Shown here piece after piece: positions 2,049 through 64,000 of a stretch of DNA of 64,000 nt (the first letter of the stretch is position 1; every line of letters begins with the position of its first letter). The position numbers were made by a program, and so were the translations under genes. Below the pieces are notes generated by a model. That model had not been told where the DNA came from and ran no database searches. It worked only from the letters and a program-made list of their open reading frames with translations. The stretch is from an uncultured Eubacteriales bacterium (GTDB taxonomy: Bacteria; Acidobacteriota; Aminicenantia; Aminicenantales; Saccharicenantaceae), in assembly GCA_964423315.1 (NCBI GenBank), contig CAYREO010000016.1, positions 1,513 through 65,512 on the forward strand, in the 5' to 3' direction.

Positions 2049-4175
2049 CTAACGAGCCCACTCCTCAGCCAGACGGGCAGCTTCCGGACGCAGGGGATTA
2101 TCAGCAGAGGCCCTCGCAAGGAAGTCTTTCATCAAGGACAGGGCGGCCGCGCGCTGCCCTGACTCGTTCTTCATAAGGGCGAAATTATAGAGCACATTGG
2201 CCGGGAATCCGGAAAAGTCCATCGACTTCCGGAAGAAGGCTTCGGCTCTCTCAAATCGCCCCAGACGGGCAAAGGTCACGGCCAATGTGTGAGCAGTTCG
2301 CACTTCGTCGATCTTAGCGGGATCGATTCCTTCGAGGAGGCGGAGGGCCTCCTCCGGGTGTCCGATCTTCAATAAAAGAAGACCCGCGCGGGTCCGGCCC
2401 ATCCCTCTGTCGTCCCCGTCGATCTCGATGAACTTTCGATAATTGGCCAGCGCGTCTTCCTCCCGGCCCAGATTCTGATAAGCTATCCCGATCGCTTCGT
2501 AAAGGCGGGCCGGATCGGGGTAATCGCCTGCCCGTTCAACCGTCAGTAGCTCGGCAAGGCCCCGCTCAAGGTCGCCTTGCTGGATATGGAGAAGCCCCAG
2601 GCGGTACCGGAGGCGGTGGTCGCGGGGATTGACATCCATCCCTTTCAGGAGCACGGCGACGGCCTCCTCCTTGGCTCCTATTCGATTATGGAGCTCGCTG
2701 AGCAGGAGATACGCCGTCAGATTCTGAGGATGGAGGGCGATGGCCCGCTCGAAACATCGTGTCGCTTCTCCAACCCGGCCGTCGGCCGTGGCCCTTTTTC
2801 CCCGGACGATCTCAGCGGCTGAGCCGACGACGTCCTTGGGATCGGGCAGGTCCTCGGCCTTGGCAGAGGGGCGGGCGTTCGAGAGGTACCCCAGGGAAGC
2901 CAGTTTCGACCATTCCTCGTTGGTGACCGTCCGCCTCGAGCTGCGGTCAGCGGAGGCCAACGCCTCGGCCTGCCGGGAAAGGGCCTCTTTCATGTCTTCA
3001 GCCCTAGCCGGGTCCCTGGCGATCAGGTTTTCCCGCTCGAAGGGGTCCTTCTCCGTATCATATAGCTCGGCCCGGGGCAAATCGAGGAATTTATAACGCC
3101 CTGTGATCAGACCGACGACCGGTGCGGCCCCCATGTCCTCCAATGCATAGAGACTTTCCAGATAAAAATCCCGCTTAGCAAGTCGACCGCCACGGATCGC
3201 AGGGAGCAGAGAAAGGCCATCACCGGGGCCCGGCGGGGCGAACCCCAGCAGATCAAGGACGGTCGGCATGAGATCGACGAGCGAGGCCCGTTCCTGGGAG
3301 CGGAGCGCAGCCGGCAGGACTCCGGGGAAGGACATGATAAGCGGGACTCGGATGTTCTCTTCATAGCAGAAGATGGAATGCCCGAGCTCCCCGTGTTCGC
3401 CGAATGCTTCGCCGTGATCCGCGGTCAGAATGACCATGGTCCGGTCGGTCAGGCCTTCGGCCTTGAGCACATCGAGGATCCGGCCGATAGCGGAATCGAC
3501 AAAGGCGATTTCCCCGTCGTATGGGTCATCGAACCGGGATCGGTAGGGCTCGGGAGGATCGTATTCCATGTGAGGGTCCCAGAAGTGTATCCATGAGAAG
3601 AATCTCCCCTTCTCTCGGCCACGGAACCAATCCAGGAAATCCGCAAGGACCTCGTCCGCGTTCCGTTCGGCGTACCAGCTCCCTGGCAGCGCCTCGTTGA
3701 CCTCGTCGCTGTAATGGTCGAATCCCTGGTCGAGGCCGAACCGGGCGTCGAGGACGAACGCGGACACGAATGCCGATGTCCTGAATCCTCGTTCCTTGAG
3801 AAGGGCCGCCAGGGTCGGCACGTTCCCTGGGAGGGAATAGAGGCCGTTGTTGCGAACGCCGTGGCTGGGCGGATACAGGCCGCTCATGATCGATGCGTGC
3901 GAGGGAAGGGTGAGTGGGACGGGGGTGACGGTATTCTCGAAAAGGACGCCCCGGGCGGCCAATCCGTCCATATTCGGAGTCCCTGCTTTCGAATAACCGT
4001 AGGCCCCCACACGGTCGGCTCTCAGGGTGTCGACCGTGATGAGAAGGACGTTCGAGTCCGCGGGCGGCGCTCCGAGGCGCGCACCGCCCCCTCCGCCTCT
4101 GATTAGCCAGAGGGCCAACGCCGCCACCGCTGCGCAGGCCAGAAGGAGTCCGATGGCCCTGATCGTCTTGCTCAC
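2049..4175 (-). CDS. Alkaline-phosphatase-superfamily sulfatase-like hydrolase/transferase with C-terminal TPR repeats; N-terminal signal/TM anchor
   Basis: N-terminus MSKTIRAIGLLLACAAVAALALW is hydrophobic. LLITVDTLRADRVGAYG metal-binding/nucleophile block has Thr at the nucleophile position, not the Cys/Ser of FGE-dependent sulfatases. LTADHGEAFGEHGELGHS is sulfatase-family like. The C-terminal half has TPR-like repeats (AIALHPQNLTAYLLLSELH, YRLGLLHIQQGDLE, YEAIGIAYQNLGREEDA). Confidence 0.8.
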   Translation of the reverse strand: MSKTIRAIGLLLACAAVAALALWLIRGGGGGARLGAPPADSNVLLITVDTLRADRVGAYGYSKAGTPNMDGLAARGVLFENTVTPVPLTLPSHASIMSGLYPPSHGVRNNGLYSLPGNVPTLAALLKERGFRTSAFVSAFVLDARFGLDQGFDHYSDEVNEALPGSWYAERNADEVLADFLDWFRGREKGRFFSWIHFWDPHMEYDPPEPYRSRFDDPYDGEIAFVDSAIGRILDVLKAEGLTDRTMVILTADHGEAFGEHGELGHSIFCYEENIRVPLIMSFPGVLPAALRSQERASLVDLMPTVLDLLGFAPPGPGDGLSLLPAIRGGRLAKRDFYLESLYALEDMGAAPVVGLITGRYKFLDLPRAELYDTEKDPFERENLIARDPARAEDMKEALSRQAEALASADRSSRRTVTNEEWSKLASLGYLSNARPSAKAEDLPDPKDVVGSAAEIVRGKRATADGRVGEATRCFERAIALHPQNLTAYLLLSELHNRIGAKEEAVAVLLKGMDVNPRDHRLRYRLGLLHIQQGDLERGLAELLTVERAGDYPDPARLYEAIGIAYQNLGREEDALANYRKFIEIDGDDRGMGRTRAGLLLLKIGHPEEALRLLEGIDPAKIDEVRTAHTLAVTFARLGRFERAEAFFRKSMDFSGFPANVLYNFALMKNESGQRAAALSLMKDFLARASADNPLRPEAARLAEEWAR

Positions 4176-5977: not shown

Positions 5978-6010
5978 ACCCGTCCTGCTCCGGCCACAGT
6001 CCCGGCACCC

Positions 6011-7045: not shown

Positions 7046-7138
7046 GCCCACCAAAAGATCCCTTCTCAGTCTGTTTTTGAGATTCGTCCGGGCTGTATAA
7101 CAAACTCATAAATTGTTGGTAATAATTCAAAAACATTC

Positions 7139-7167
7139 TTGACAACTCCCTATCAGGCGGATATGAT
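7139..7167 (+). promoter_or_regulatory. σ70-like promoter upstream of lipoprotein paralog A / KdgK / Eda operon, with ATATGATATATCGTAT motif
   Basis: TTGACA (7139-7144), N17, TATGAT (7162-7167). The motif ATATGATATATCGTAT lies at 7161-7176. RBS AAGGAGA precedes the ATG at 7249. Confidence 0.45.
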
Positions 7168-7248
7168 ATATCGTATAAGAAATATGTCCATTGCCTGCTA
7201 TGCTCGATTGACATCCACAGCGGGCGGAATTCATAAGGAGACTCTTCC

Positions 7249-8805: not shown

Positions 8806-8826
8806 TGGGGCCCCGGGAGCCCCACG

Positions 8827-32719: not shown

Positions 32720-32817
32720 GACAGACTCCTTCATTTGGGCGGAAAGGAGGATTGGAGACAAGCCTGTCTCCCTGGATTGGCCCTATCGAAAAGCTTGCTC
32801 AGCCCCATTAGGATATG

Positions 32818-39091: not shown

Positions 39092-39128
39092 GATGCCCTC
39101 CTGCTTATGGGATGCTCGTCGAAGGCCC

Positions 39129-50599: not shown

Positions 50600-51960
50600 G
50601 ATCCACCTTCCCCTCCGGCTTTTTGGCAGTCGAGCATCCTCCGAAAAGTTTCGATGATCTTACGGGCTGCCCCCTCCTCGAGAAGGCTGCTCACTCCGGG
50701 GCGGCTCTCATACCCTCCCCGTGCCAATGCCTCTTCCGTCGGGATGTAGCCGAAGTACCCGTTGGCCAAGGCCACGGGGAGGATCATATCGTATCCTCCG
50801 ATCCTCATGATCTCCAGGCCGATCTCTACAAACGGCTCTCCCGGAACGGCGGCGAACGCGATCTCCCCCATGGCAAAAGCTTGGAGAGGGAGGCGATAAA
50901 CGCCGGGGCCTGTCTCAAGGAAAAGCAGCAGGCTCTCGGCAAACAGCCTTTCCAAATGGGGGTCTCCCCGGTTCAAGTCCTCTGAGGTCAGGTTGGCCGG
51001 GGCGGTCCCGGTTCTCGCCCCCTCCCGCCGCTCGACGAGCGCCCGGGCTTTCTCGATCAGGGATGCCTCAACCCGGCGGGGCCGAAGTTCGAGCAAGGCC
51101 AGGCTGGCATCAAGGCGGTCCACGCGGGCGGGCTTCATAGCCGACCGGAGACCGGCCACGACAACGGCATAGGCCTCGCCAAGGCGCCGAGCCTCCTCGT
51201 AGGACGACTGGCCCCTGGCGTCCTCGAAGTTGAAGTGATTGATGTTGCCCTGGGGGGCGATGAACGGGAAGACGGGGACATCCCGGCCCCACAAGGAGAC
51301 AATCTCCCGCTCCATGAAACCGGGCCAGTCGGCGGAGACGAAGTTCTCTCCTATGGTGTCAGTATGGTTCGACGCATTGACGAACAGGGCGGCGTCGGCG
51401 CCCGTCCCGTCACGGATGGCCACGACCCGGACCTGGGGGTCGACAGGGCCCTCGGGGCGGACCCGAGACGGGTGCCGCTTCGGAGGGTTCGTGACGACGG
51501 AGCCGTCCTCGAGGAACCATCGGCGGTTGAAGGATAGCCCCACGGCCTGCGCCCGCCCGACGGCGACCTCGACAGGCAAGTCGGGGAGGAGGGAGGCCGC
51601 CGCCCCGATGAGCTTTTCCTTCAAGGAACTGAGATATACGGTCTCCCGTGGAAGCCCGAAGAGACCGACCACGTCAGGCCCTGTATGAATATGAGAGGTA
51701 TGGATCATGATGGATGGGCCGGGGTATCCCGTCCGGCTCGAGATTTTGTTCCGGATTTCCTCGACGTCTTCCGACAGAAGCGCGAGGGTATCGACCTGGA
51801 CGAAAACCAGAACACTCCCATCTCTTTCAAACACCGCAATACGGGCGAACAGGGGGTCCATCACCCGCTCCGCCGATCGGAAGTTGAAATATCCGGCCAA
51901 CGATACGGGCACATCCGGGGTGATATCAACTTTGGCGAAACCCGCTCTCAGTCGACCCAT
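50596..51960 (-). CDS. Neutral/alkaline ceramidase-like N-terminal-domain hydrolase (no signal peptide)
   Basis: N-terminus GRLRAGFAKVDITPDVPVSLAGYFNFRSAERVMDPLFARIAVFE parallels the neutral ceramidase N-domain (GvakvDITgP...GY...rLyARAfv). HTSHIHTGPD is a metal-site-like block. Stop overlaps the start of the next gene. Confidence 0.6.
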   Translation of the reverse strand: MGRLRAGFAKVDITPDVPVSLAGYFNFRSAERVMDPLFARIAVFERDGSVLVFVQVDTLALLSEDVEEIRNKISSRTGYPGPSIMIHTSHIHTGPDVVGLFGLPRETVYLSSLKEKLIGAAASLLPDLPVEVAVGRAQAVGLSFNRRWFLEDGSVVTNPPKRHPSRVRPEGPVDPQVRVVAIRDGTGADAALFVNASNHTDTIGENFVSADWPGFMEREIVSLWGRDVPVFPFIAPQGNINHFNFEDARGQSSYEEARRLGEAYAVVVAGLRSAMKPARVDRLDASLALLELRPRRVEASLIEKARALVERREGARTGTAPANLTSEDLNRGDPHLERLFAESLLLFLETGPGVYRLPLQAFAMGEIAFAAVPGEPFVEIGLEIMRIGGYDMILPVALANGYFGYIPTEEALARGGYESRPGVSSLLEEGAARKIIETFRRMLDCQKAGGEGGS

Positions 51961-52074
51961 GACGCATTCCCTCGATGCTCAACGGCTCCGACAATGAGGC
52001 CTGCTCTTCATAATCTATTGTAGACGTCCCTCATCCCCGGGTCCAGTCTAAGTACAACAATTGTTTTTCTCTAT

Positions 52075-52096
52075 AAAATATGATATATGATATCAA
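52075..52096 (+). promoter_or_regulatory. AT-rich direct-repeat motif AAATATGATATATGATATCAAG immediately upstream of PfkB operon start (candidate -10/operator)
   Basis: Two TATGAT hexamers (52079-52084 and 52086-52091) lie 12-19 nt upstream of the ATG at 52103. Same heptamer ATATGAT as in the other divergent intergenic regions. Confidence 0.35.
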
Positions 52097-52102
52097 GCGC
52101 TA

Positions 52103-53044
52103 ATGCAAAGTCGCATCATAGTCATCGGCGAATCCCTTCTCGATATCCTCTTCCGCGACGGACAGCCTTTGAGCGCGACGCCCGGCGGCTCCATGCTCAA
52201 TGTATCCCTAAGCTTGGGTCGTCTCGGCCTCCGCGTGACATTCGTCACTGAGCTCGGCGAGGACCAGCCCGGGGACATCATCCGGCGAGCCCTTGCGGAC
52301 AACGGCGTGGACACCAGTTTCGTGGGGACGCTTGTCCCGGGAAAGACGCCTGTGGCCCTGGCTTTTCTCGATGACAAGGGCGACGCATTTTATGACTTCT
52401 ACAAGCTATATCCTCCCGACCGGTTGAGCGGTCCCCTCCCCCGCCCGGCCCCCGGCGATATCCTGCTCTTCGGGTCCTTTTTTGCCGTTGACCCGGCCAT
52501 CCGGCCCGCCCTCATGCCATGGCTCCGATCGTTCCACGGGTTAGGGCTCAACGTCTATGATCCCAACATAAGGACCCGGAGCCTGGATTCGTCTTCCCGA
52601 CTCAAGGCCCTTTTCGAGGAGAACGCCGGGTTGTCCGATATCGTCAAGGGATCGGATGAGGATTTTATGACAGTTTACGGGACAGCCGACCCTGAACGCC
52701 TCTTCCCTCCCCTCAGGGAGAGAGGGTGCTTCGCCTTGATCGTTACACGCGGTCCGGATGACGTCCTCCTTGTGGGCGAGGGACTGAAGCTGTCAGTGCC
52801 CGTTCCGCCCCTGCGTCCCGTAAGCACCATCGGCGCCGGGGATGCCTTCAACGCCGGCCTTCTTTTCGGCTTGACCCGCCTCGGGATCGACCGCGAAAGG
52901 CTGCCCAGTCTGACCTCGCAGCTGTGGGCCGAGATCCTGGGGGCAGCGGTCGCTTTTTCCGCCGAGGTTTGCCTCAGCCGCGAAAATGCCATCGGCAGGG
53001 AATTCGCCGCGAAGATTGCCCAAGAGAGGGGAGCTGAGCAATGA
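52103..53044 (+). CDS. PfkB-family sugar kinase (fructokinase/ribokinase-like)
   Basis: IVIGESLLDIL ... PGGSMLNVSLSLGRLG N-terminal sugar-binding block. TIGAGDAFNAGLLFGL C-terminal PfkB signature. Confidence 0.8.
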   Translation: MQSRIIVIGESLLDILFRDGQPLSATPGGSMLNVSLSLGRLGLRVTFVTELGEDQPGDIIRRALADNGVDTSFVGTLVPGKTPVALAFLDDKGDAFYDFYKLYPPDRLSGPLPRPAPGDILLFGSFFAVDPAIRPALMPWLRSFHGLGLNVYDPNIRTRSLDSSSRLKALFEENAGLSDIVKGSDEDFMTVYGTADPERLFPPLRERGCFALIVTRGPDDVLLVGEGLKLSVPVPPLRPVSTIGAGDAFNAGLLFGLTRLGIDRERLPSLTSQLWAEILGAAVAFSAEVCLSRENAIGREFAAKIAQERGAEQ

Positions 53045-53811
53045 AAGTGTTCATCATGATCTCGCTGTTCCTGGTTTGTCTCGCGCCGGCTCCGGCCCGG
53101 GAGGAGAGCGGACCGGTCATTGTCCGAAAGGCCGCCGGACCGATCTTCATCGACGGGAACCTGGACGAACCGGATTGGCAGCGGGCCCGCCGCGTCGGGA
53201 CTTTCCTGGTTCATCCCACCCGGGAGCCCGAATCCGAGGATCTCACGGAAGCCTGGGTCCTTTGGGACGAGGTCAATCTCTACATAGCTTTTCGTTGCCA
53301 GGATCGGCACATCTCGGCCGAGCGGACGCAAAGGAACTCCGACGTCTCCCAGGACGACTGCGTGGAGGCCTTCCTATCGCCCTTTCCCGCAAGGCCCCGC
53401 GTCTATACCAACATCGAGATCAATGTTCTCGGCACCTATCTTTCCCGCATGATCCAGGACGAGCCGATCGAGGCGGTCCGCGGCGCGCCGGGGGTTGCCG
53501 ATCCGGAAAGCCTCAGGCCCCACTGGCACCCTCCGGGCCTCCAGATCGGTCGCTCCCACTCGGGCACGATCAACGACGACGCAGATACGGACGCCTGGTG
53601 GATCATCGAGTTCAGCCTTCCCTTCCGGGCCCTTCGCTATCTCGGGTTGACGGAACCTCCGAGGCCCGGGGATGAGTGGCGGTTCAATCTATTCCGGCTC
53701 GGGGGCCGGACCGACTCTTTCCGGCGCAACCTGTTCTATATCCCCGAAGGGAAGAGCAATCACTCCCCCGAGCACTTCGGCCGGCTCGTTTTTTCGGAGA
53801 CCACGTGGTGA
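53041..53811 (+). CDS. Secreted CBM9-like (DOMON-like carbohydrate-binding) domain protein
   Basis: Signal peptide MKVFIMISLFLVCLAPAPA. IFIDGNLDEPDWQRARRVGTF and WVLWDEVNLYIAFRCQD, DDCVEAFLSPFP resemble CBM9_1. ATGA overlap with the PfkB stop. Confidence 0.6.
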   Translation: MKVFIMISLFLVCLAPAPAREESGPVIVRKAAGPIFIDGNLDEPDWQRARRVGTFLVHPTREPESEDLTEAWVLWDEVNLYIAFRCQDRHISAERTQRNSDVSQDDCVEAFLSPFPARPRVYTNIEINVLGTYLSRMIQDEPIEAVRGAPGVADPESLRPHWHPPGLQIGRSHSGTINDDADTDAWWIIEFSLPFRALRYLGLTEPPRPGDEWRFNLFRLGGRTDSFRRNLFYIPEGKSNHSPEHFGRLVFSETTW

Positions 53812-53846
53812 GCCCGGCACGATCATCCCATTTGTTGGAGGTCACC

Positions 53847-56800
53847 TTGAAGAAAGCCATCGCAGTCGCAGGACTGATCCTCGCCTTGGCGGCGCTCGGA
53901 AAGACGGCCGAGGACCGTTGGGCCCTCGGTCAGACCCTGCACCTGTCCTTCGACACCGAGGCGGACATCCTGTCCGACTTCCTGTCGGAAGCCCACATGT
54001 TCCGCACCGCCCTTCCCGGCCAAGTCCTTCCCAACCCTCTACAAACCAGGCAGCTCGAGATCGTCCCAGGAAGGTTCGGAGGTGCCCTACGGGTCAAGGA
54101 CGGCTGGTCCAAGACCAAAGGAACGTCGAACGAATCGGGGGCCGACCTCGATCTGATCGTGGCTACCATCTGGGGGGACTGGCGGACCAAGCCCCATTAT
54201 TGGGGACTCGGAAAGTTCCGCGGGGACAGGGGCACGCTCGCTTTTTGGATCAAGGCCGACAAGCTCGTCGGCGAACCGCTTTATCCCCTCTTTATCCAGA
54301 CGGGCATCCACTGGGGGAGGAACGAGCGCGACGTCTTCAGGGTCGACGGCGATGCCGAGGGCCGGCTCACGACCTCCATCCGCGACATCTTCTATCAATA
54401 CCACGAAGTGAAGTCGGAAACGCCCGTTTGGCGCAACGGGGAGTGGCAGCATGTGGCCGTCGCCTACGATAGCGCCTTCGGCCTGAAGCTCTATCACAAC
54501 GGCCGGCTGGTGGCCTCGAACTGGGGCCAGGACGCCTGGTGGAAAGCGCCGCTTCCGGGCCTTTTCAGCCCCTTCCACCCGGAATCCCTTTACGACGAGA
54601 TCTACGCCTTCGAACGGGTCCTGACCGAAGACGAGATCCTCAGGCTCTTTGAGTCCAACCGGACTCCCGAAGCCCCCGAACCGCCACGGGTCCTTGATGC
54701 GCAGGCCCGCCGGCGACGGCTGGCCTCCTACGGACCCGTGGAGACCCTCGATCTCCCAACCTTCTCCGCGGGCGAGAGCACTCTGACCATGCACCAGACC
54801 AGGGTTGCCGAGTGCGCCGACGAAAAGATCCCGGCTTGGTGGGTCATGGACGGCCGCTACGAGCTGGCCTGGCCTCACCCCTACCTTCTCTTCACATTCA
54901 TCCTTGGCGATGTCGACTTTCACGGCACCAAGGTCGACATCGAGCTTGAGGAGGGGGAAACCGCCAATTTCATCTCCTTGGAGGGGAATCTGGATGGCGT
55001 CGAAGTCACGCCCGGGAAGACCGGGGCGGGAGGGCCGAGTCCCAAGCTCGTCGATCTCAACGGCTACACGTCCCACTTCTTCTCCCAGCGTCTGGACCTG
55101 GGAGGGTCGCGGCACCTCCACCTGCCCATGCTCAAGGGCTACGGGACCCCTCCCGGCCTGGTCGATCGGGGCACGCTCCGTTTCCCGTTGACGGGCGAAA
55201 TCCGCCTGCATGAGCTCCAGCTCTGGAACGCGGCGGTCACGGACACGGCTCCTCCGCCCGACTTCACCTGGGTCTGCCCTCTGGAGGACCGGCCCCGGGG
55301 ATTCGACATCCGCTATCTGGATGCCCTCTTCAAGCTGATGGGGCCCGACGACCGGACGATCCTCGTCGGCCGCGCCGGTCCGGGACTGTCCGATAGGCCT
55401 ATGCTGGACATCGAAGCCCTGAAGGCCATCCACCTTTTCAGCCCCGATCTCAACCCGGACTTGGCCGTCGATCGAGTCCGCCTGACCCTTTGGATCGTCC
55501 CCGAGGGCCCGTCCGATGTGCTCTGGGTCAGCCTGAGGGACCCGGCTAATCCCCATCGGCTGTGGGCTCACAGCGTCGTCCGGGTCCGGTTCTCCGAGCC
55601 CGGCAAGCCCCAGAGGATCGATCTCGATATCGACCCCGTGGACCTGATGCTGGCCAGCGAGGATCGGCTGTGGGTCGAACTGCGGTTCGCCGGGCGGCAG
55701 AGGATCGTGACCCGGGCCGACCAGGCCCCGAGGATGGGCGTCGTCCTCAGCAAGGACCGAAGCCGATCGCTGGCCGAGTACTCACGTCACGTGATGATCC
55801 CCGCCCGGATGCAGTACATCAAGGAATACAACTACCAACCGTGGCATTTCACGGGCGAGCAGCGGAACCGTCCGGAGATCGCCTTCAACGGAGGTTCGGT
55901 CCCTTCGGCGTTCAGCTTCATCTCGGGGCAAGTCCCCGGCCTCAACTACTGGTCGAACTTCGGGGGGCCTTACGACATGTGGTACCCGCCCGACGCCGTC
56001 TTGCGGCACGACCCCGACAACGAGATCGCCCGGATCTACCGGGCCATCACCGGCGAACGGGCCCAGACCTACGGAGGCTATAACATCCGGGGCTTCACTC
56101 CGGTCGAGAAGGTGCCGCTCGTCCCCGGTTCCCCGGCCCACGCGCCCGCTTGGGCCGTCTGGGAACGGGAGATGTATTCTCGGCAACTGAAGACGATCCA
56201 TTGGATCGCCGGCAGGCAACGCGCGGATGGCATGTTCTGGGGGGGCTCGAACGACGATGTCTTCATCCCGCTCGGATACTCCGCCGTCCCGCTCATGGGC
56301 GACGAGGTGTCCCGTCGGTCGTTCCTCCGCCTCTACGATGGACTCGAGGAGTTCGGCGTCTTCAAGGACGGATACTGCGACATCTGGCCGATCGATTACC
56401 TCCACATCACGGACTTCCTGACCAGCCGCGGGCTGATGGTCCCCTACGCGCTCGGCGATCCCCATGTCCTCGAGCGGGAGATGATCACGGCCCGCGTCTA
56501 CCAGGGCATCATGGATCGGAACAACGAAGATCGGGCCGAGGCGGGCCTGCCCCCCTACGAGCGCGATTCCGACGCCTTCCAGAAGGAGCCCAAGCTGTGG
56601 GGGGAAAGCCTGGTCCGCGATTACGAGACGACCCAAGTGGAGTGGTATTGGGGGCGAACGCCGGAGGCTGAGCCCCACATCCTCGGGGACCGCGAGGAGC
56701 TCGCCCGGCGGATGATGGCCATCGCCGTCCGCTACGACAAGATCGAGGAGTTCGAATGGACGGAGGCCCTGCGCCACACGGACCGCCAGGGCGGAGCGCC

Positions 56801-57500
56801 CGGACGCAACGAGCTTGTCACCGCCGCGCTGGGAGGCCGGCTCCAGGGGCGCATCGAGCCCCATCCGCATTCCATGGTCGTGAGCTGGGACAATCCGGAC
56901 CCCGACCTCGCGCGCCTTGTGTCCTACGGCGACGCCCGGTCCGTGCGTGCCAACCTGTTCAACTTCAAGGCCGATCCTCTTAAGGTCTCCATGCGCCTTT
57001 GGCGGATCCGCGACGGTTCGTACCGCCTCCGTATGGGGACCGACCGGGACGACGACGGGTTTATCGACCGTGGCGCCCCGATCCTGCGCGACGAACGCCT
57101 GCGGTTGGGACGGTTCGCGGAGGTCCCCCTCGTCGTGCCGCCGCTCTCCAACGTCGTCGTTGAGATCGAACTCGTCAGAGGGACGACGCCTTCGGGCACC
57201 CGTCCCGACCTGGCCGTCGACCCGCTGAGAGGCATCCGCGAAGAGAACGGCACTCTCCTGGTCACGGTCCACAACATCGGGAGCGCACCCGCCCGCCGCA
57301 TCGCCGTGGACGTCCTGGACGGTGACCGGCTCGTCGAGCGCCGCATCATCCCGGAGATCGCCGCACCCCTCGACCTCGCGCCCAAGAAATTTGATATCCG
57401 ATTCGATCTCCGGGGGCACTCTTGGACGAAGGTCGTTGTCGATCCCCGCGGGGCCATCCCGGAGCTCTTCAAGGGCAATAATGAAGCCGCACGGAAGTAA
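53847..57500 (+). CDS. Giant (about 1217 aa) secreted protein with concanavalin-A-like lectin/LamG domain; remainder unknown
   Basis: Proposed TTG start at 53847 (GGAGGT RBS) giving signal peptide (M)KKAIAVAGLILALAALGKTA. LamG-like block GTLAFWIKADKL ... GEWQHVAVAYDSAFGLKLYHNGRLVAS. The ORF-track frame is open from 53676, but that extension overlaps the upstream gene. Confidence 0.55.
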   Translation: MKKAIAVAGLILALAALGKTAEDRWALGQTLHLSFDTEADILSDFLSEAHMFRTALPGQVLPNPLQTRQLEIVPGRFGGALRVKDGWSKTKGTSNESGADLDLIVATIWGDWRTKPHYWGLGKFRGDRGTLAFWIKADKLVGEPLYPLFIQTGIHWGRNERDVFRVDGDAEGRLTTSIRDIFYQYHEVKSETPVWRNGEWQHVAVAYDSAFGLKLYHNGRLVASNWGQDAWWKAPLPGLFSPFHPESLYDEIYAFERVLTEDEILRLFESNRTPEAPEPPRVLDAQARRRRLASYGPVETLDLPTFSAGESTLTMHQTRVAECADEKIPAWWVMDGRYELAWPHPYLLFTFILGDVDFHGTKVDIELEEGETANFISLEGNLDGVEVTPGKTGAGGPSPKLVDLNGYTSHFFSQRLDLGGSRHLHLPMLKGYGTPPGLVDRGTLRFPLTGEIRLHELQLWNAAVTDTAPPPDFTWVCPLEDRPRGFDIRYLDALFKLMGPDDRTILVGRAGPGLSDRPMLDIEALKAIHLFSPDLNPDLAVDRVRLTLWIVPEGPSDVLWVSLRDPANPHRLWAHSVVRVRFSEPGKPQRIDLDIDPVDLMLASEDRLWVELRFAGRQRIVTRADQAPRMGVVLSKDRSRSLAEYSRHVMIPARMQYIKEYNYQPWHFTGEQRNRPEIAFNGGSVPSAFSFISGQVPGLNYWSNFGGPYDMWYPPDAVLRHDPDNEIARIYRAITGERAQTYGGYNIRGFTPVEKVPLVPGSPAHAPAWAVWEREMYSRQLKTIHWIAGRQRADGMFWGGSNDDVFIPLGYSAVPLMGDEVSRRSFLRLYDGLEEFGVFKDGYCDIWPIDYLHITDFLTSRGLMVPYALGDPHVLEREMITARVYQGIMDRNNEDRAEAGLPPYERDSDAFQKEPKLWGESLVRDYETTQVEWYWGRTPEAEPHILGDREELARRMMAIAVRYDKIEEFEWTEALRHTDRQGGAPGRNELVTAALGGRLQGRIEPHPHSMVVSWDNPDPDLARLVSYGDARSVRANLFNFKADPLKVSMRLWRIRDGSYRLRMGTDRDDDGFIDRGAPILRDERLRLGRFAEVPLVVPPLSNVVVEIELVRGTTPSGTRPDLAVDPLRGIREENGTLLVTVHNIGSAPARRIAVDVLDGDRLVERRIIPEIAAPLDLAPKKFDIRFDLRGHSWTKVVVDPRGAIPELFKGNNEAARK

Positions 57501-57503
57501 ATC

Positions 57504-59633
57504 ATGAAAAGAACGCTTCACGCCTTGATATTCGCCGTTCTCCTCGCCGCCGCCCTGTCGCTCACGGCGACGGTCCAGGGCCCGCAATGGCTGAAGATCG
57601 AGAACGCCTTGCCGCCGTCACCGGAGGGATTCCGCGGCTTCCACTGGTGCGTACGACAGAACGAGGGTCCCTGGAAGCTCGAAGGCGGCTCCATCCACAC
57701 CCTGTTCACTCGGCCGGACGAGGATTATGCCGTCTTCGGCGAGACCGCCGCAGCCATCACCTACACCACCCGGAACTCGGTCCTCTACGGGGTCCGCATC
57801 GATATGCGGGGCCGCGACGCGGTCGCCCGCGCGGCGGCCATCGCACAAAAGGAATACCCTCCAGCTGGCCCGGTCATCCGCGTGAACGAACACGAGAGCC
57901 GCTGGCAAACGCCCCACACGTCCGTATGGGTCGCCCTGCCCGGGCGCAGAGACGGCTACGGCCAGATCTTCCTTTGGGGCCGAGACCGCGTTTTCCCTGA
58001 CGACTCCAAAAGGCCGGATTTCTTGAATCCTCCGATGGCCCTGAACCACACCTTGAAAAAGTACAAACCACGCCAGTACGTCATCTACCGGACGTCGGGC
58101 CCTATCGTCATCGACGGGGACATCCACGAAAAGGCCTGGCAGGACGCGCCATGGACGGAGCCCTTCGAAGACGCTCAGTCACCTTATTGCCCGTTGCCTT
58201 GGAAGATGACCCGGGCCAAGATCCTCTATGACGAAGACGCCCTCTACTTCGCCATCCAGCTCCAGGAAGAGAACGTCTGGGGACACCTGACCCAGCGGGA
58301 CAGCATCGTCTATTTCGACAATGACATTGAGATCTTTGTCGACCCCACCGCCGACGGCGTCAACTACTTCGAGTACGAGATGACCTGCCTGAACACGATG
58401 TTCGACATGTGGCACGAGAACGACAACCACCGGGGCGCGCTGGCTGACGGGACCTACGATTCGCCGGGACTTCGCAGCGCGGTCCGGGTCCAGGGCACGC
58501 TCAACTACCATCACGACACCGACGACGGCTGGACGGCTGAGGTCATGATCCCCTTTGTCGACATGAAGGCCGCCAACCCGGGCATGTCGCTGCCAGTCAG
58601 GCGGGGAGACATGTGGCGGATGAACTTCAGCCGGGTCCAGTACCTGCATATCTACACCCAACTTTTCCCCTACCTCCTCCCTTACAGTCCCTGCGAGGAC
58701 TGGGTCTGGAACACGACCCACAGCGGAGACCTTCACATCCCGGAGATGTGGGCCAAGGTCTTGTTCTCGGACCGGACCTCCGGACCCGTCCTGGACGACG
58801 AATTGGAGGATTCCTTCCCCATCCTCGCCCCACCGACTCCTACCACGAAAAAGACAGAGATGGTCCGCTTCCCGGCCGGGGCCTTCACCCTGGGGCCGGA
58901 CCCGACCGATCCCAAGCACAGCCCGGCCCATCGGGTCGATATCCCGGAGTTCTGGATGGACCGCTACGAGGTCACCGTCGCCGAATACACGGCCTTCCTT
59001 AACGGCGGCGGGCGCGATCAACATTACCATGACCGGATGATGATCCCCGAGTTGTGCGGTATCCTGAAGACCGGGGCCGGTAAATATCGCGTCGTCCCGG
59101 GACGCGAGCATTACCCTGTGGTCTTCGTATCCCAGGAGGATGCTATGGCCTACGCGGCCAGTTTCGGGAAAACCTTGCCGACAGAAGCCATGTGGGAAAG
59201 GGCGGCCCGAGGGTCGGAGGGTCGCCTCTACCCCTGGGGTGATGAACCTCCGACTCCCCGGAAAGCGAACTACGATTTCCATTACGGAGGGACCCTTCCT
59301 GTGGGAAGCTTGCCGGAGGGAGCGACTCCTGAGGGCCTCTTCGACATGTGCGGGAACGTCAAGGAGTGGACAACGTCACGGCTCGATCCTTACCCGGGAG
59401 GGGCGGAATACGAGCGCTGGTTCAATCAACCGTTCTTCAGGCCGCCCTTCGGCGAGAGGCCCTCGCCGTGGATCAACCGTGGGGGCGCCTGGACCAAGCA
59501 GGCCAAGTGCATCGCGGCCGGGTACCGCGATACCCAGGCCGCTCATAACACCGGATTCCGATGTGTCGCCATGAGTGACCCCGAGGCCCGTAAGGACAGG
59601 GCCAAGGGCCGAACATCGGAGGACTTTTCATGA
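57504..59633 (+). CDS. Secreted fusion protein: N-terminal CBM9-like domain + C-terminal formylglycine-generating-enzyme (FGE/SUMF1, DUF323) family domain
   Basis: Signal peptide MKRTLHALIFAVLLAAALSLTA. CBM9-like blocks IVIDGDIHEKAWQDAPW, ILYDEDALYFAIQ, DNDIEIFVDP. FGE-family blocks YEVTVAEYTAFL, LPTEAMWERAARG, RLYPWGDE, GNVKEWT, NRGGAWT ... NTGFRCVA. Confidence 0.75.
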   Translation: MKRTLHALIFAVLLAAALSLTATVQGPQWLKIENALPPSPEGFRGFHWCVRQNEGPWKLEGGSIHTLFTRPDEDYAVFGETAAAITYTTRNSVLYGVRIDMRGRDAVARAAAIAQKEYPPAGPVIRVNEHESRWQTPHTSVWVALPGRRDGYGQIFLWGRDRVFPDDSKRPDFLNPPMALNHTLKKYKPRQYVIYRTSGPIVIDGDIHEKAWQDAPWTEPFEDAQSPYCPLPWKMTRAKILYDEDALYFAIQLQEENVWGHLTQRDSIVYFDNDIEIFVDPTADGVNYFEYEMTCLNTMFDMWHENDNHRGALADGTYDSPGLRSAVRVQGTLNYHHDTDDGWTAEVMIPFVDMKAANPGMSLPVRRGDMWRMNFSRVQYLHIYTQLFPYLLPYSPCEDWVWNTTHSGDLHIPEMWAKVLFSDRTSGPVLDDELEDSFPILAPPTPTTKKTEMVRFPAGAFTLGPDPTDPKHSPAHRVDIPEFWMDRYEVTVAEYTAFLNGGGRDQHYHDRMMIPELCGILKTGAGKYRVVPGREHYPVVFVSQEDAMAYAASFGKTLPTEAMWERAARGSEGRLYPWGDEPPTPRKANYDFHYGGTLPVGSLPEGATPEGLFDMCGNVKEWTTSRLDPYPGGAEYERWFNQPFFRPPFGERPSPWINRGGAWTKQAKCIAAGYRDTQAAHNTGFRCVAMSDPEARKDRAKGRTSEDFS

Positions 59634-61051
59634 ACCGCACGAACCGTATGATGCCAATATTGCTGGCGGCGGCCCTTCTAGGACCTCTCCTCCTGGGGCA
59701 AAGTTGGGAGCCGGTTTCGGAAGCCCAGCGCCGGAAATGGAACGAAACCTACGACAAACTCGGGCTTTACGCCTCGACGGGCATGGTCAAGGCATCCGAC
59801 AGGTCTTTTCTGCGTGTCCCGAAGGAGATCGACCCGGCCTGGATGGCGGGAGTAAGCATCGCCTCCCGGCCTCCGGTCATCGCCTTCGCGCCCCTGCGCG
59901 GCCTCGACCCGATGTATTTCCCCGAGGACAACAAGAGCCTCTGGTCGAACTGGGCAGACGTCACCCGGGCCCCCAATGGGAGGTTCTACCTCGCCGCGGG
60001 CGATCACCGCGGCCGGGACGCTCGGATGTTCCTCTGGGAGTACGACCCCGTGACCGACGACATCCGGCGGGTCCTCGACTTTGCCGAATTGTGCGGGTGG
60101 AACCTGCGCGGCGTCGGAGACTCCAAGATCCACGGCGATATGGGGGCTATGCCCGACGGCACCCTCTGGATCCTGACCTATTGGGACCCCGACCCGAAGC
60201 CCACGCCGGAGGACGAAGCCAAGTGGCCTGGAAGCCACCTCGTCGTCTACGACACGTTCACCGGCCGGGCTCGGGACCTGGGGGTCGTCATGCCCAAGGC
60301 CGGCTGGCCGTATTATTCCCTCGATCCGCAGCGGGGCCGACTGTTCGCCGTCGGCTTCCGGGGGGAAGTTCTTTGCTACGACGTCATCAAGGGCGCTCCG
60401 ACGTTCCTCGGGTACCCCCCGGATGGGCTCAAGTGGGGCCTGCGCTGCACCATGCTGGATCCCGACACAGGTCTTTTCTGGACGTCCGAAGCGGTCCCCC
60501 CCCACGCCTTCATGAGCTTCGATCCCCGGACGAACATCTTCACTCGGTATCCCGAGACGACCCCGGGGGAACTCGGCGCGCAAGCCGGTTCGAACTCGCC
60601 CGTCAGGGCCCACGCTCACAAACGGTCCGAGGGCGGCTTCATCTGGATGAACAGCCACCTAGGCACGCTTTACAAGTTCTGGCCGGACACCCGGCGGACC
60701 GAGGTCATCGGCAGGCTGTGGGGGGACGAGACCTACGCCCCGCGCATCGAGATGAGCGAAGACGGACGCTACATCTACGCGATGCCCAACCTGCTGCAGA
60801 ACCATTCCTATCATCAGCCGGTCGTCCAGTTCGACACCCGGAGCCACCGCCGGAAGGTCATCGCCTTCCTCGACGACTTCCTTCACGAAACGTACGGCTA
60901 CTTCAACGGAGGGGCCCACGGCCTGGCCTTGTCGGCTGACGGCGGCACGCTCGTCTTCAATCTCAACGGCGCCTTCAAGCCCCGTATTCAACCATTTTAC
61001 GGCAACCCCGCCATCCTTGTGGTGAGGATACCAGAAAGAGAAAGGGACTGA
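59630..61051 (+). CDS. Secreted protein, member C of the 3-copy paralogous family (β-propeller-like, unknown function)
   Basis: Signal peptide MNRTNRMMPILLAAALLGPLLLG. Blocks KIHGDMGAMPDGTLWILTYWDP, RRKVIAFLDDFLHETYGY, ILVVRIPERER. ATGA overlap with the upstream FGE-fusion gene. Confidence 0.75.
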   Translation: MNRTNRMMPILLAAALLGPLLLGQSWEPVSEAQRRKWNETYDKLGLYASTGMVKASDRSFLRVPKEIDPAWMAGVSIASRPPVIAFAPLRGLDPMYFPEDNKSLWSNWADVTRAPNGRFYLAAGDHRGRDARMFLWEYDPVTDDIRRVLDFAELCGWNLRGVGDSKIHGDMGAMPDGTLWILTYWDPDPKPTPEDEAKWPGSHLVVYDTFTGRARDLGVVMPKAGWPYYSLDPQRGRLFAVGFRGEVLCYDVIKGAPTFLGYPPDGLKWGLRCTMLDPDTGLFWTSEAVPPHAFMSFDPRTNIFTRYPETTPGELGAQAGSNSPVRAHAHKRSEGGFIWMNSHLGTLYKFWPDTRRTEVIGRLWGDETYAPRIEMSEDGRYIYAMPNLLQNHSYHQPVVQFDTRSHRRKVIAFLDDFLHETYGYFNGGAHGLALSADGGTLVFNLNGAFKPRIQPFYGNPAILVVRIPERERD

Positions 61052-61075
61052 GCCCTTGGCGCAGACGCCCGGGCG

Positions 61076-63352
61076 TTGGGGACGCAGGACATGAGAGAGA
61101 GGTCCCAGGGGCCGAAAAAGGATGATCCGTTTGACCCTTTGGAGTCCCTGGATAAGTTCAATATCGTCTGGGACTCTCCCAGCCCCGATGCCTGGGGAAC
61201 GATGCCCACGGGCAACGGCGACATCGGACTGAATGTCTGGGTCGAGACCGGCGGCGACCTTCTTCTCTATATCGGAAAAACTGATGCATGGGACGACAAC
61301 GGCCGTCTCCTGAAGGTCGGACGAATCCGCATCCGCCTGTCCCCAGGCGGCCTGGCACGCACTCCGTTCTTCCGCCAGACTTTGCGCCTTCGTGACGCAA
61401 CGATCGAGGTTGTCACTCGGGGAGAACGGGGCGATGAGGCCACGGCCCTGGTCTGGGCCGACGCCCATCATCCCGTTATCCACGTTCTTATCGACAGCTC
61501 GGAGCCCGCAGAAGCCGCCGCCTCGATCGAGCTGTGGCGAACCTCCCCCACCGAGCTTCCGACGATCGAGGTCAGTGATGTCCATTACGATCACGATCTC
61601 CCCGACCACAAACACTTCCCGACCATCGTCGAGCCCGACACTCTGGTCCCGGAACGACCAGGCCGCATCGGTTGGTATCACCACAACGTCAAATCGGTCG
61701 GACCGGCGCTTTCGGCCCGTCTTCAGGACATGGAGGGGTTCGCTCAGCCCGATCCGCTCCTAGGCAGGACTTTCGGGGCCTTGATCCTGGCAGATAAAGG
61801 AAACCCGGCCGGGGATGCCGTCCTCGTCTCGCCCTCTTCCTGGACCCATCATTTCCGGATTTGTGTCCTGACCCGGCACCCGGCATCGCCCGCCTCCTGG
61901 CTGGAGGATGCGGAGTCGAAGATCGCCGATGTCGAAAGGACCCCTCTCGACGAGCGCCGGAGCTCCCATCGGCTGTGGTGGGAGGAGTTCTGGAGACGAA
62001 GCTGGATCGACGTCTGCGCCCCGAGCGGCAATGACGGCGCTTTCGTCCTCAGCCGGGCCTACGCCTTGCAGCGCTTCATCAACGCCTGCGGAGGCCGCGG
62101 GTCCTACCCCATCAAGTTCAATGGCTCGATTTTCACGGTCCCCTGCCCGGGACGCCCGGGAGACGCTGACTACCGCCTTTGGGGACCGGGCTACTGGTGG
62201 CAAAACACAAGACTGCCCTACATGGGCATGTGCACCTCAGGCGACTTTGATCTTCTCCCCTCCCTGACCGGCATGTACATCGGAGAAGCGTTGGAAATGG
62301 CCCGCTATCGGACCCGGCGCTACTTCGGTCACGAGGGGGCATATTTCAATGAGTGCATGTACTTCTGGGGGGCGGCCTTCAACGAGTCCTACGGCTGGAC
62401 GCCCCGCGAGAAACGTAAGGTCGTCGAGAATGAGAGCCGGTGGCACCGCTGGGAATGGCAGGGAGGAATCGAGCTCCTGTCGATGATGATCGACCAATTC
62501 GAGCACACGCTCGAGGTGGATTTTTTAATGGGAACCGTCCTTCCGTTCGCCCGGGATATCCTGACCTTCTACGATCTCCATTACCCGGTGGACGACCGCG
62601 GTAAGATCGTCATGGCCCCGGCCCAAGCTCTCGAAACCTGGTGGGAGTGCCGCAACCCGATGCCCGAGATCGCCGGCTTAATGTCGGTCACCGAGCGGTT
62701 GCTGGAACTGGCCGGAGCCTCGGCATGCGAAGAAGACGTCCGGCTGTGGCGGCGGCTCCACGATAAGATGCCCGCGCTCCCAACGCGGGAGGAAGCCGGG
62801 ATCAGGATGCTCGCCCCCGCCGAGAGCTTCGCCGATAAGCAGAACCTCGAGAACCCAGAACTCTATGCCGTCTTTCCTTATCGACGGATCGCCATAGGTC
62901 GAGCCGGGCTCGAGCTGGCCTTAGCTGCCCTCGAGCACCGGTGGGACAGGGGGAATTTCGGATGGTGCCAGGACGAGATCTTCATGGCCTTTCTAGGCCT
63001 GGCCGACGAAGCCAAGGTGAACATCCTGGCCCGGGCGAGCAACAAGCACGACGGCTCTCGATTCCCGGCTTTCTGGGGGCCCAATTTCGACTGGATCCCC
63101 GATCAGGACCACGGCGGCGTCCTGATCAAAGCGCTTCAGGCGATGCTGATCCAAACCGACGGCAAACGGATCTTCCTACTGCCGGCTTGGCCAGCGGATT
63201 GGGATGTCGATTTCCGGGTCCACGCCCCGTACCGTACCGTGCTCCAAGGACGCGTGAGGGCCGGGCGTATCGTGGAGCTCTCCGTCACCCCTCCCGAGCG
63301 GCAACGGGATGTCGTGGTCGGCCCAGTGCCTCCGGCCGTCACCGGCTCTTGA
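61076..63352 (+). CDS. Putative glycoside-hydrolase-like protein (GH95/α-L-fucosidase-like N-terminal β-sandwich plus (α/α)6-type C-terminal region); product uncertain
   Basis: N-terminal WDSPSPDAWGTMPTGNGDIGLNVWVET ... LLLYIGKTDAWDDNG parallels GH95 W..PA..W.EALPIGNGRLGAMVFGG ... ERIQLNEDTLWSG. No signal peptide seen. Confidence 0.4.
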   Translation: MGTQDMRERSQGPKKDDPFDPLESLDKFNIVWDSPSPDAWGTMPTGNGDIGLNVWVETGGDLLLYIGKTDAWDDNGRLLKVGRIRIRLSPGGLARTPFFRQTLRLRDATIEVVTRGERGDEATALVWADAHHPVIHVLIDSSEPAEAAASIELWRTSPTELPTIEVSDVHYDHDLPDHKHFPTIVEPDTLVPERPGRIGWYHHNVKSVGPALSARLQDMEGFAQPDPLLGRTFGALILADKGNPAGDAVLVSPSSWTHHFRICVLTRHPASPASWLEDAESKIADVERTPLDERRSSHRLWWEEFWRRSWIDVCAPSGNDGAFVLSRAYALQRFINACGGRGSYPIKFNGSIFTVPCPGRPGDADYRLWGPGYWWQNTRLPYMGMCTSGDFDLLPSLTGMYIGEALEMARYRTRRYFGHEGAYFNECMYFWGAAFNESYGWTPREKRKVVENESRWHRWEWQGGIELLSMMIDQFEHTLEVDFLMGTVLPFARDILTFYDLHYPVDDRGKIVMAPAQALETWWECRNPMPEIAGLMSVTERLLELAGASACEEDVRLWRRLHDKMPALPTREEAGIRMLAPAESFADKQNLENPELYAVFPYRRIAIGRAGLELALAALEHRWDRGNFGWCQDEIFMAFLGLADEAKVNILARASNKHDGSRFPAFWGPNFDWIPDQDHGGVLIKALQAMLIQTDGKRIFLLPAWPADWDVDFRVHAPYRTVLQGRVRAGRIVELSVTPPERQRDVVVGPVPPAVTGS

Positions 63353-64000
63353 CGTAGATCTCCCAGGCGATCGTCAGCGCGAACCATAGAAGTCCAAGCC
63401 CGACCGACCATTTCCAGAGTCCGGGCCAGGACTTGAGCCCGACCCACGGCCCCCGGACGTCGCGCAGGGTGAAAATCGTTAGATCCGCAAGCTTGTCCGG
63501 AGCCGGCGGCGGCTCCCAACGGCTGAGAACGAGGATGGCGGCGATCGAAAAGAGAAAGGAAAAGAAGCCGACGTAGGCGAAATTCAAAGTCGTTCCAACG
63601 TCTAAGACAACGGCCAGGACGATCCCCCCGACCATCCCGAAGAACGCGGCCCGGGGCGCGGCCCGGCGGGAGAAAATCCCCACCAGGTAGAGCGCCAGGA
63701 CCACGCCCAGAACATCCCCGTAGAAGCTCTGGAGGAAACCATGGCCAGTCTCGCTCTTGAACACAAACGGGACGATGGCCAGAGTGATGACCAGGACGGC
63801 GGCCGCAGAAAGCCGCGCGACACGCTTTAGATCCTTCTCCGTCGCTCCGGGCTTGATGAACCTCCGGTAGACGTCCTCAGTGAACAGGGCGCTCGAGGCG
63901 GTAAACATGCCGTCGATCGTCGAAAGCAGGGCAGCCATTAGCCCAGCAATGAGAAGACCCTTAGCCCCGGCCGGAAAATAGTCGAGGATGATTCTGGAGA
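63339..64000 (-). CDS. Sodium:solute symporter family transporter, C-terminal part (gene runs off window end)
   Basis: AALLSTIDGMFTASSALFTEDVYRRF is an SSF signature, followed by several TM helices to the stop at 63339. The frame is open to position 64000. Confidence 0.7.
   Translation of the reverse strand, partial: SRIILDYFPAGAKGLLIAGLMAALLSTIDGMFTASSALFTEDVYRRFIKPGATEKDLKRVARLSAAAVLVITLAIVPFVFKSETGHGFLQSFYGDVLGVVLALYLVGIFSRRAAPRAAFFGMVGGIVLAVVLDVGTTLNFAYVGFFSFLFSIAAILVLSRWEPPPAPDKLADLTIFTLRDVRGPWVGLKSWPGLWKWSVGLGLLWFALTIAWEIYVKSR

Follow-up and report, generated by a model that had tools for sequence, protein, structure and literature searches.

Introduction

The formylglycine-generating enzymes (FGEs) have a C-type-lectin-like fold that nature has put to many uses. 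Versions of this fold that lack the catalytic cysteines have already been described for Tsi3, PvdO, pFGE and the variable proteins of diversity-generating retroelements (DGRs) (bioRxiv 10.1101/2021.05.21.445229; PMC6328139). The present work concerns another such version, encoded in a stretch of 64,000 nucleotides from contig CAYREO010000016.1 of an uncultured bacterium (assembly GCA_964423315.1). The whole stretch is referred to below as the window. Its gene at 57504..59633, here called the target, joins a Cys-less FGE-type domain to a CBM9-like domain and to an N-terminal orphan domain. This three-domain architecture is real and previously undescribed, and it is built on a known versatile fold. 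A literature search on FGE-sulfatase combined with CBM9 found no paper, and the two matches returned for DUF323 were false, since they concerned DUF3237.

The FGEs themselves, represented by human SUMF1 (1y1e) and the enzymes of T. curvata (6s07) and S. coelicolor (2q17), share with the target the C-type-lectin-like fold (Foldseek E ~1e-12, TMt 0.54-0.65; profile E ~1e-28). They also share the motifs LPTEAEWE, YPWG, GNxxEWT, RGGxW and GFRC, and residues that match Ca2+ site 2. Unlike the target, they have a Cu-binding Cys pair and Ser333; the disulfide positions C218 and C235 of the human enzyme are both Ala in the target. The target in turn has the extra CBM9-like and orphan domains and has no sulfatase substrate in the window.

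EgtB (4x8b) is the best single match to the target in the PDB (sequence E 2.3e-22; Foldseek 7.1e-16). Together with OvoA, SenA and OvsA (4x8b, 8u41, 8k5i), which are likewise non-heme iron synthases of sulfoxides or selenoxides, it resembles the target in being a multi-domain protein in which a Cys-less FGE-like domain is packed on a partner domain. In these synthases, unlike the target, there is a DinB_2 domain with a three-His iron site. EgtB is cytoplasmic, whereas the target has a predicted signal peptide. The best matches to the family profile are CalU17 (6vqp, E 6.9e-35) and ToxD (7spq, E 1e-29), which are also Cys-less FGE folds. In contrast to the target, both have one domain only and are encoded in biosynthetic gene clusters for natural products, and no such cluster is present at the target. 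A literature search on ToxD with formylglycine found no paper.

The DGR protein TvpA (2y3c, profile E 1.3e-8), TaqVP, and the sensor domains of kinase, TIR and caspase-like proteins have the same fold subtype as the target and are likewise Cys-less. In DGR-type ligand-binding domains the functional surface is the segment that forms the catalytic loop of FGE (PMC6328139). The C-terminal segment of the target family, by contrast, is conserved and not hypervariable. The FGE fold is also found with the catalytic cysteines missing in pFGE/SUMF2 (1y4j), PvdO (5hha), PorK/GldK (9mzu) and the type VI secretion immunity proteins Tsi3, which act by binding or as structural parts (bioRxiv 10.1101/2021.05.21.445229). 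Their partners and genomic contexts differ from those of the target, which has no lipobox. With respect to the second domain, CBM9 modules of the T. maritima Xyn10A type, that of C. kristjanssonii (7nwn), and 4jpq share a beta-sandwich fold with the target's module, which differs from CBM9 in being fused to an FGE-type domain and not to a glycoside hydrolase. Classical CBM9 modules bind carbohydrates at their reducing ends.

Domain architecture of the target protein

The features of the gene and its product are these:

57504..59633, + strand: target gene, encoding a three-part protein predicted to be secreted (open reading frame listing, Pfam, AlphaFold2 model, homologue architecture)
57504..57578, + strand: Sec signal peptide, predicted at residues 1-25 (MKRTLHALIFAVLLAAALSLTATVQ), without a lipobox Cys (sequence, family, AlphaFold2)
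57585..58079, + strand: N-terminal orphan alpha/beta domain, residues ~28-192 (stand-alone AlphaFold2 model, searches)
58080..58793, + strand: CBM9-like beta-sandwich domain, residues ~193-430 (Pfam, Foldseek)
58794..58850, + strand: Pro/Thr-rich linker, residues 431-449 (sequence, between the two Pfam domains)
58851..59573, + strand: FGE-type C-type-lectin-like domain (PF03781) of the Cys-less class, residues 450-690 (Pfam, PDB matches)
59055..59057, + strand: codon of C518, Cys in 74/75 family members (family Cys census)
59154-59156, + strand: codon of A551 (alignment)
59403..59477, + strand: loop before the RGG motif, residues 634-658 (family consensus all 'x'; pLDDT blocks 78 and 54)
59478..59528, + strand: RGGAWTKQAKCIAAGYR segment that corresponds by homology to the catalytic loop of FGE but has no Cys pair, residues 659-675 (alignments)
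59562..59564, + strand: codon of C687 in GFRC, 71/75 members, equivalent to human FGE C365 (alignment, Cys census)

The open reading frame (ORF) begins with ATG, ends with TGA and encodes 709 amino acids (aa). Pfam assigns residues 203-354 to CBM9_1 (E 3.8e-8, 33.9 bits compared to a cut-off of 23.4), with a weak match to CBM9_2, and residues 450-688 to FGE-sulfatase, PF03781 (E 1.4e-44, 153 bits, profile positions 2-254 of 255). The translation contains GNVKEWT, NTGFRCVA and RGGAWTKQAKCIAAGYR. A preliminary description of this DNA, made from the sequence alone, had proposed a fusion of a CBM9-like to an FGE-family domain here. With the ORF, both Pfam domains and the quoted motifs confirmed, that proposal holds far beyond chance. 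Its inventory of domains was correct for these two halves and missed the N-terminal orphan domain.

The full-length protein, modelled by AlphaFold2 (AF2) with the family alignment as input, gave a predicted local distance difference test (pLDDT) score of 92 and a predicted template-modelling (pTM) score of 0.90. The pTM value suggests that the three domains pack as one body, and in the model the architecture is fixed and compact. The model divides into an alpha/beta domain (residues ~31-190), a beta-sandwich (~191-430) and the FGE-type domain (~450-690). An AlphaFold model had been suggested as a check in the preliminary description, and Foldseek searches with it matched both of the folds named there. 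The middle domain found CBM9 (7nwn, E 3.1e-10, TMt 0.76) and 4jpq (E 2.1e-10), with TMt of 0.74-0.76. For the C-terminal domain the best structure in the PDB was EgtB (7e-16), followed by CalU17, ToxD, FGEs and pFGE; the PDB matches of this domain as a whole comprise EgtB, CalU17, ToxD, FGEs, pFGE, PorK, PvdO and TvpA.

The orphan domain, of ~165 aa, reached a pLDDT of 91.4 when it was modelled alone. It has many invariant charged residues, and its invariant motifs are EGFR, ITYTxRNSxxYGVRID and LWGRDRxFPDD. In the PDB the best Foldseek match was 1vr8 (E 0.047), and none reached E<0.001. There was no Pfam match at E<=5 and no PDB profile match at E<=10, and a word-indexed protein search returned 4 fragments only. 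The domain is missing from a two-domain CBM9+FGE subfamily.

Export of the protein is predicted from the sequence features of its signal peptide. In the AF2 model the N-terminus is a helix (residues 2-20) followed by a stretch of low pLDDT. Among 79 full-length family members, 53 have a hydrophobic N-terminus and 26 have no signal-like segment; a lipobox is present in none of them, the target included. One subgroup of ~660 aa (P0055-P0079) starts right at the EGFR motif and has no hydrophobic N-terminus. Either they are genuinely cytoplasmic or their start sites were called wrongly. P0021, of 659 aa, does carry a signal peptide.

The preliminary description had also called for a search for other proteins that combine CBM9 with DUF323, and ~100 clusters at 90% identity proved to share the architecture of the target. 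Those that are named come mostly from Candidatus Latescibacterota, with a few from Gemmatimonadota. At 50% identity the three-domain form has a single representative, and only 3 further representatives have CBM9+FGE, all of them without the orphan domain. A search of 185,579 species genomes, in which phylum counts rest on submitter labels, found the three-domain form at 5 loci (2 Latescibacterota, 2 Gemmatimonadetes/ota, 1 Aminicenantes) and the two-domain form at ~9 loci (Latescibacterota, Planctomycetota, Bacteroidota). The remaining matches in these genomes, in many phyla, cover the CBM9-like part only. The family is small, well-conserved and phylum-restricted.

The FGE-type domain and the catalytic cysteines

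Canonical FGEs have a Ser-Cys-Cys triad, whose two Cu(I)-binding cysteines are spaced as C-x4-C and follow RGGS[YF]. In a HMMER pairwise alignment of the target with human FGE, the catalytic C336 and C341 lie opposite a 6-residue gap (query side RGGAW......TKQAKCIAAGYRD), and the Cys of the target matches the structural C346. A profile of 75 family sequences aligned with T. curvata FGE places K665 at catalytic Cys1 and I670 at Cys2. The cysteine of the target, C669, is one position before Cys2 and is out of register. Of the 75 members 44 keep it, and the other sequences show N, T or H at this position; the family consensus of the segment is RGGxWTKQExCMxxAYRD. No member of the 75 has a Cys pair in the FGE register. 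The preliminary description had stated that one Cys remains and that the equivalent of C336 is missing. The pair is indeed absent, but the wording was slightly generous, as C669 occupies neither catalytic position.

Other landmarks of human FGE can be followed in the alignment with 1y1e_X, which has a 72-residue offset. C218 becomes A551, C235 becomes A568 and N259 remains N589. The position of Ser333 (KGGSY compared to RGGAW) is Ala662, and is G, S or A across the family. D614, G617, V619 and E621 are opposite human N293, G296, A298 and E300 and are conserved in the family. For the human sites we follow Dierks et al., 2005, and take these four human residues as Ca2+ site 2.

Since there is no Cys pair under either alignment, the target is not an FGE. 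The residue test (Cys pair, Ser333) rules out a canonical FGE. As judged from these residues, the protein is not a sulfatase-maturing enzyme and would make no formylglycine. This agrees with the preliminary description, which had doubted a canonical FGE and had named an alignment to the FGE profile as the check; neither catalytic Cys was found in it.

One gene of the window encodes a protein with a sulfatase fold:

2049..4175, - strand: sulfatase-fold + TPR protein (PF00884, E 4.6e-49)

Pfam was run on 42 ORFs of the window, which are all likely genes among ORFs of >=250 aa together with the ORF 63339..63938, and no other PF00884 match was found among them. At the C/S-x-P-x-R site this protein reads PLTLPSHASIMSG (PLTLPSH), with Thr as the nucleophile and His in place of Arg. 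These two residues place it in the Thr-type alkaline-phosphatase superfamily and not among FGE substrates. The Thr in the only sulfatase-like gene of the window had been pointed out in the preliminary description, and both the PF00884 match and the motif bear it out. In 24 homolog loci (338 kb), a Cys-type sulfatase is near the family gene in one, L012, from a metagenome-assembled genome labelled Gemmatimonadetes. The sulfatase (CTPTRCSILTG, 8250-9615) and the family gene (6001-8061), which is 65% identical to the target, are on opposite strands. One adjacency in 24 does not exceed what glycan degraders would be expected to show.

That the target is a genuine though divergent FGE, which matures sulfatases, is extremely improbable. 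The PF03781 domain, the automatic names of the relatives (formylglycine-generating enzyme, or SUMF1/EgtB/PvdO family) and the sulfatase lying directly downstream in L012 can be cited in its favor. Against it, both Cu-binding cysteines are missing in 75/75 members, the equivalent of Ser333 is Ala, the sole sulfatase-fold gene of the window has a Thr nucleophile, and no sulfatase is near in 23 of the 24 homolog loci. The residue pattern effectively refutes it already.

The weight given to the loss of the cysteines was an overstatement. Searched exhaustively with HMMER, 1.84 billion representatives yielded 84,788 matches at E<=1e-3, and in the best 149 non-self matches none of 220 RGGxW segments carries C-x4-C. 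To judge from these sequences, cysteine loss is ordinary and is the majority state of PF03781. The FGE-type domain of the target belongs to the common Cys-less, probably non-catalytic class of the fold. The relatives have been named automatically as 'formylglycine-generating enzyme required for sulfatase activity' (JGI) or 'SUMF1/EgtB/PvdO family nonheme iron enzyme' (NCBI). These are generic labels and not evidence, and neither is supported; a literature search on the NCBI family name found no paper.

Relatives and conserved residues

The closest relatives of the FGE-type domain are 37-42% identical to it; in them 2-3 FGE domains stand in tandem and are joined to a TIR, Ser/Thr kinase or dockerin domain. 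They are of a sensor or ligand-binding class. These kinase-, TIR- and dockerin-linked relatives, the absence of C-x4-C from the 220 segments and the match to TvpA assign the FGE-type domain of the target to the ligand-binding class.

Compared to ~200 background FGE domains, sixteen positions are conserved in the target family only: P465, P467, S473, L499, N500, D505, Y508, M512, C518, R534, A551, G596, P631, G632, Q666 and Y674. The polar residues among them (S473, N500, D505, Y508, R534, Q666 and Y674) do not form a His/Cys set of the metal-binding type, and no His triad is present among the family-specific conserved residues. As a set they would look more like a site for a polar ligand than like one for a redox metal. 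Beside the catalytic-loop segment lies the loop of residues 634-658, which is variable in sequence across the family and of low confidence in the model.

In 161 of 199 background FGE domains there is a Cys at the position of A551, which pairs with the Cys of GFRC, as C218 does with C365 in the human enzyme. The target family has Ala at this position and an almost invariant C518. The structural disulfide has probably changed its partner, and in this family would join C518 to C687.

Membership in the described families was rejected in each case. The NCBIfam scores were 77.6 for EgtB (cut-off 360), 70.8 for SenA (cut-off 420), 30.7 for the N-terminal model of OvoA (cut-off 400), 64.5 for GldK/PorK (cut-off 350; a lipobox is also lacking) and 37.5 for PvdO (cut-off 500). 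Pfam finds no DinB domain in the target. A DGR target was also rejected: there is no template or variable repeat, no reverse transcriptase match in the scanned ORFs, and the family conserves the C-terminal segment. Across 50000-64000 a single direct repeat was found, a motif shared between CBM9 domains.

The CBM9-like module shares only 12-14% identity with CBM9 structures that have been solved. It retains the generic motifs of PF06452, namely IDGxxDExxW, DDxxExFxDP, GWxxExxxP, WRxNFxR and HxPExW, and has a family-specific insertion of ~13 residues, YLHIYTQLFPYLLPYSPCEDW. Its closest relatives (~40% identical) occur on proteins with AXE1, S9 esterase/peptidase, transglutaminase-like, M61 or GHL10 domains. 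Such varied attachments indicate a portable module, one that mostly has a catalytic domain as its partner. Carbohydrate targeting, as proposed in the preliminary description, is plausible from the CBM9-like fold and the glycan-flavored locus. Since relatives are also found on peptidases and transglutaminase-like domains, the ligand need not be a carbohydrate. A heme-binding, DOMON-type reading of the domain found no support: CBM9-only paralogs also have the conserved His411 and the acidic motifs as generic features, and the domain showed no ligand pair that only the fusion family has.

A possible ligand-capture protein or enzyme

We tentatively favor the view, with a probability of about 0.45, that the target is an exported, non-catalytic accessory protein that captures a ligand, probably a glycan, in polysaccharide-utilisation regions. 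Sec export would carry the three-domain protein outside the cytoplasm. There the CBM9-like module and the FGE-type face at the position of the catalytic loop would jointly bind a polymer, probably a glycan. The captured polymer would then serve the surrounding hydrolases, transporter and sugar kinases in the polysaccharide-utilisation regions of Latescibacterota. We infer both that the protein binds rather than catalyzes and that the ligand is a glycan. There are precedents for such a use of the fold. The variable ligand-binding residues of DGR proteins overlie the catalytic triad of FGE (PMC6328139), and FGE-fold immunity proteins (Tsi3) that bind and do not catalyze are known (bioRxiv 10.1101/2021.05.21.445229).

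Several observations weigh against ligand capture. Conservation is high and even over the three domains, with a mean column value of 0.60 to 0.74. The best matches in both sequence and structure, EgtB, CalU17 and ToxD, are enzymes or biosynthetic proteins. This CBM9-like module normally stands beside a catalytic domain; by that rule the catalytic part would be the FGE-type domain or the orphan domain. The confident packing between domains in the model would suit a lectin no better than an enzyme whose active site is composite. The gene neighborhoods are loosely conserved, and the ~660-aa subgroup appears to have no signal peptide.

Much of this speaks for an enzyme of new activity, whose composite active site would lie where the FGE-type domain meets the CBM9-like (or orphan) domain and which would act on a glycan or its substituent in the periplasm or extracellularly. 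The compact body predicted by the model (pTM 0.90), the strong conservation with its many invariant charged residues (E, R, D, N), including those of the orphan domain, and the three top matches would all be in keeping with catalysis. So would the usual location of the closest CBM9-like modules on catalytic domains and the placement of the gene among catabolic enzymes. However, no catalytic or metal motif (His triad, Cys pair, DinB) is recognised, and the closest relatives of the FGE-type domain are sensor-type repeats. As the two-domain subfamily has no orphan domain, that domain cannot be a universal catalytic part. An enzyme of this kind, the main rival to ligand capture, is possible but somewhat unlikely. 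It is quite doubtful that the combination of a CBM9-like and a Cys-less FGE-type domain (with or without the orphan domain) would be a previously unknown carbohydrate-active enzyme with its active site at the interface, by analogy with DinB and the FGE-like domain in EgtB.

Genomic neighborhood

The target is part of a string of genes near the end of the window:

52103-53044, in the gene string: PfkB kinase (Pfam)
53041..53811, + strand: CBM9-only paralog, 256 aa, head of the gene string (Pfam CBM9_1, E 1.2e-7)
53676..57500, + strand: upstream giant protein with Laminin_G_3 and CARDB, 1274 aa (Pfam)
59630..59633, + strand: ATGA overlap of the target stop and the start of the 473-aa gene (sequence)
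59630..61051, + strand: downstream 473-aa protein (BLASTP paralogs; no Pfam or PDB match)
61076..63352, + strand: 758-aa DUF5703_N protein that closes the string (Pfam, E 4e-62)
63339 onward, opposite strand: SSF symporter (Pfam)

The CBM9-only paralog is 30% identical to residues 193-425 of the target (BLASTP E 2e-19), with which it shares a 45-nt motif. The TAA of the 1274-aa gene ends 3 nt before the ATG of the target. From its mechanical GTG start, the 1274-aa gene shares 136 nt (53676-53811) with the CBM9-only gene, and a signal-peptide-like stretch, LKKAIAVAGLILALAALG, begins ~47 residues into the ORF. The overlap and this internal stretch suggest that the true start is probably near 53811 and that the genes are tightly packed. 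The DUF5703_N protein closely matches two recent structures in the PDB, 9hmb (E 6.9e-133) and 9hyq (E 3.3e-102), both deposited as 'DUF5703 domain-containing protein'; a literature search on DUF5703 found no paper. PfkB kinases are nearby in the window, and the locus is glycan-flavored.

The 473-aa protein has no Pfam match at E<=5 and no PDB sequence match. It has two paralogs in the window, at 7249-8805 (+) and 32952-34382 (+) (BLASTP E 5e-92 and 1.5e-73); the three are 473-518 aa in length and 30-38% identical. The preliminary description had called this protein 'β-propeller paralog C' and had considered it coupled to the target. The ATGA overlap and the two paralogs support the coupling and the paralogy in the window, but the searches gave no match in support of a β-propeller fold, and the linkage is not conserved. 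A conserved operon with the 473-aa gene was rejected: among 10 homolog loci a relative is within a few kb in one (L004, 64% identical, ~4 kb from the CBM9+FGE gene) and adjacent in none.

No fixed partner gene was found across these 10 loci. What recurs near the homologs are tandem CBM9+FGE paralogs (L003, L004), CBM9-only genes (L004), DUF362 pairs, DUF6599/PEGA, BNR, 3-keto-disaccharide hydrolase, AXE1, GH-like and MR_MLE genes, and also GFO_IDH_MocA, Aminotran_3, SSF, ceramidase-like and sugar-catabolic genes. The DUF362 pairs are just upstream of the CBM9+FGE gene on the opposite strand in 3 of the 10 loci (L003, L004, L006); in the window, the 42 scanned ORFs gave no DUF362 match. DUF6599/PEGA is upstream in L004 and L006. 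Core genes of type VI or type IX secretion systems (T6SS/T9SS) are not adjacent, and Por_Secre_tail domains are present on two neighboring genes only (L004, L010).

These neighborhoods bear on another explanation, that the target binds a protein or peptide, as a scaffold, as an inhibitor of the immunity type or as an assembly factor for its large secreted neighbors. Both Tsi3 (bioRxiv 10.1101/2021.05.21.445229) and PorK (9mzu, 9ots matches) bind or build structures with this fold. The closest relatives of the FGE-type domain are joined to kinases, TIR and dockerin, and those of the CBM9-like module occur on peptidases and transglutaminase-like proteins. Translational coupling to the gene of a neighboring secreted protein would also suit such a role. 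The 10 homolog loci, on the other hand, conserve no partner gene and have no adjacent T6SS/T9SS core genes, with Por_Secre_tail only in L004 and L010, and the GldK NCBIfam score is far under its cut-off. We consider a protein binder improbable.

Elsewhere in the window are other large proteins. The genes at 30695-32761 (-) and 34379-36496 (+) are paralogs (29% identical, E 3e-48) that have no Pfam match; one of the pair is 53% identical to a gene of L008 with a faint transglutaminase-core match. The proteins of 27231-30698 (-) (1155 aa) and 46709-48478 (+) (589 aa) have no Pfam match either, and their homologs (47-54% identical) are side by side in L010, where they adjoin the CBM9+FGE gene. 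These large Pfam-less proteins appear to be members of a guild of uncharacterised secreted proteins that recurs. The ORFs at 36566-39334 and 39129-41669 (-) encode tandem large proteins, 53% identical, with a Peptidase_S9/esterase domain. Since these two ORFs overlap by ~200 nt, the gene at 36566-39334, which begins at its 39334 end, probably starts further in.

Significance

To a specialist the target will come as no surprise, as it is an uncharacterised version of a well-known versatile fold. Its practical value is in annotation, where the FGE and nonheme iron names of its relatives need correction. As these names are unsupported, counting such genes would inflate the sulfatase-maturation or ergothioneine capacity assigned to metagenomes. 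The family joins two lectin-type folds and an orphan domain, among the uncharacterised large secreted proteins of Latescibacterota. Should the composite-enzyme explanation be true, glycan-directed chemistry would be added to the FGE fold, along with a new enzyme family in the polysaccharide-utilisation loci of Latescibacterota. The ligand, if it is found, would provide a handle on how these uncultured bacteria handle polymers.

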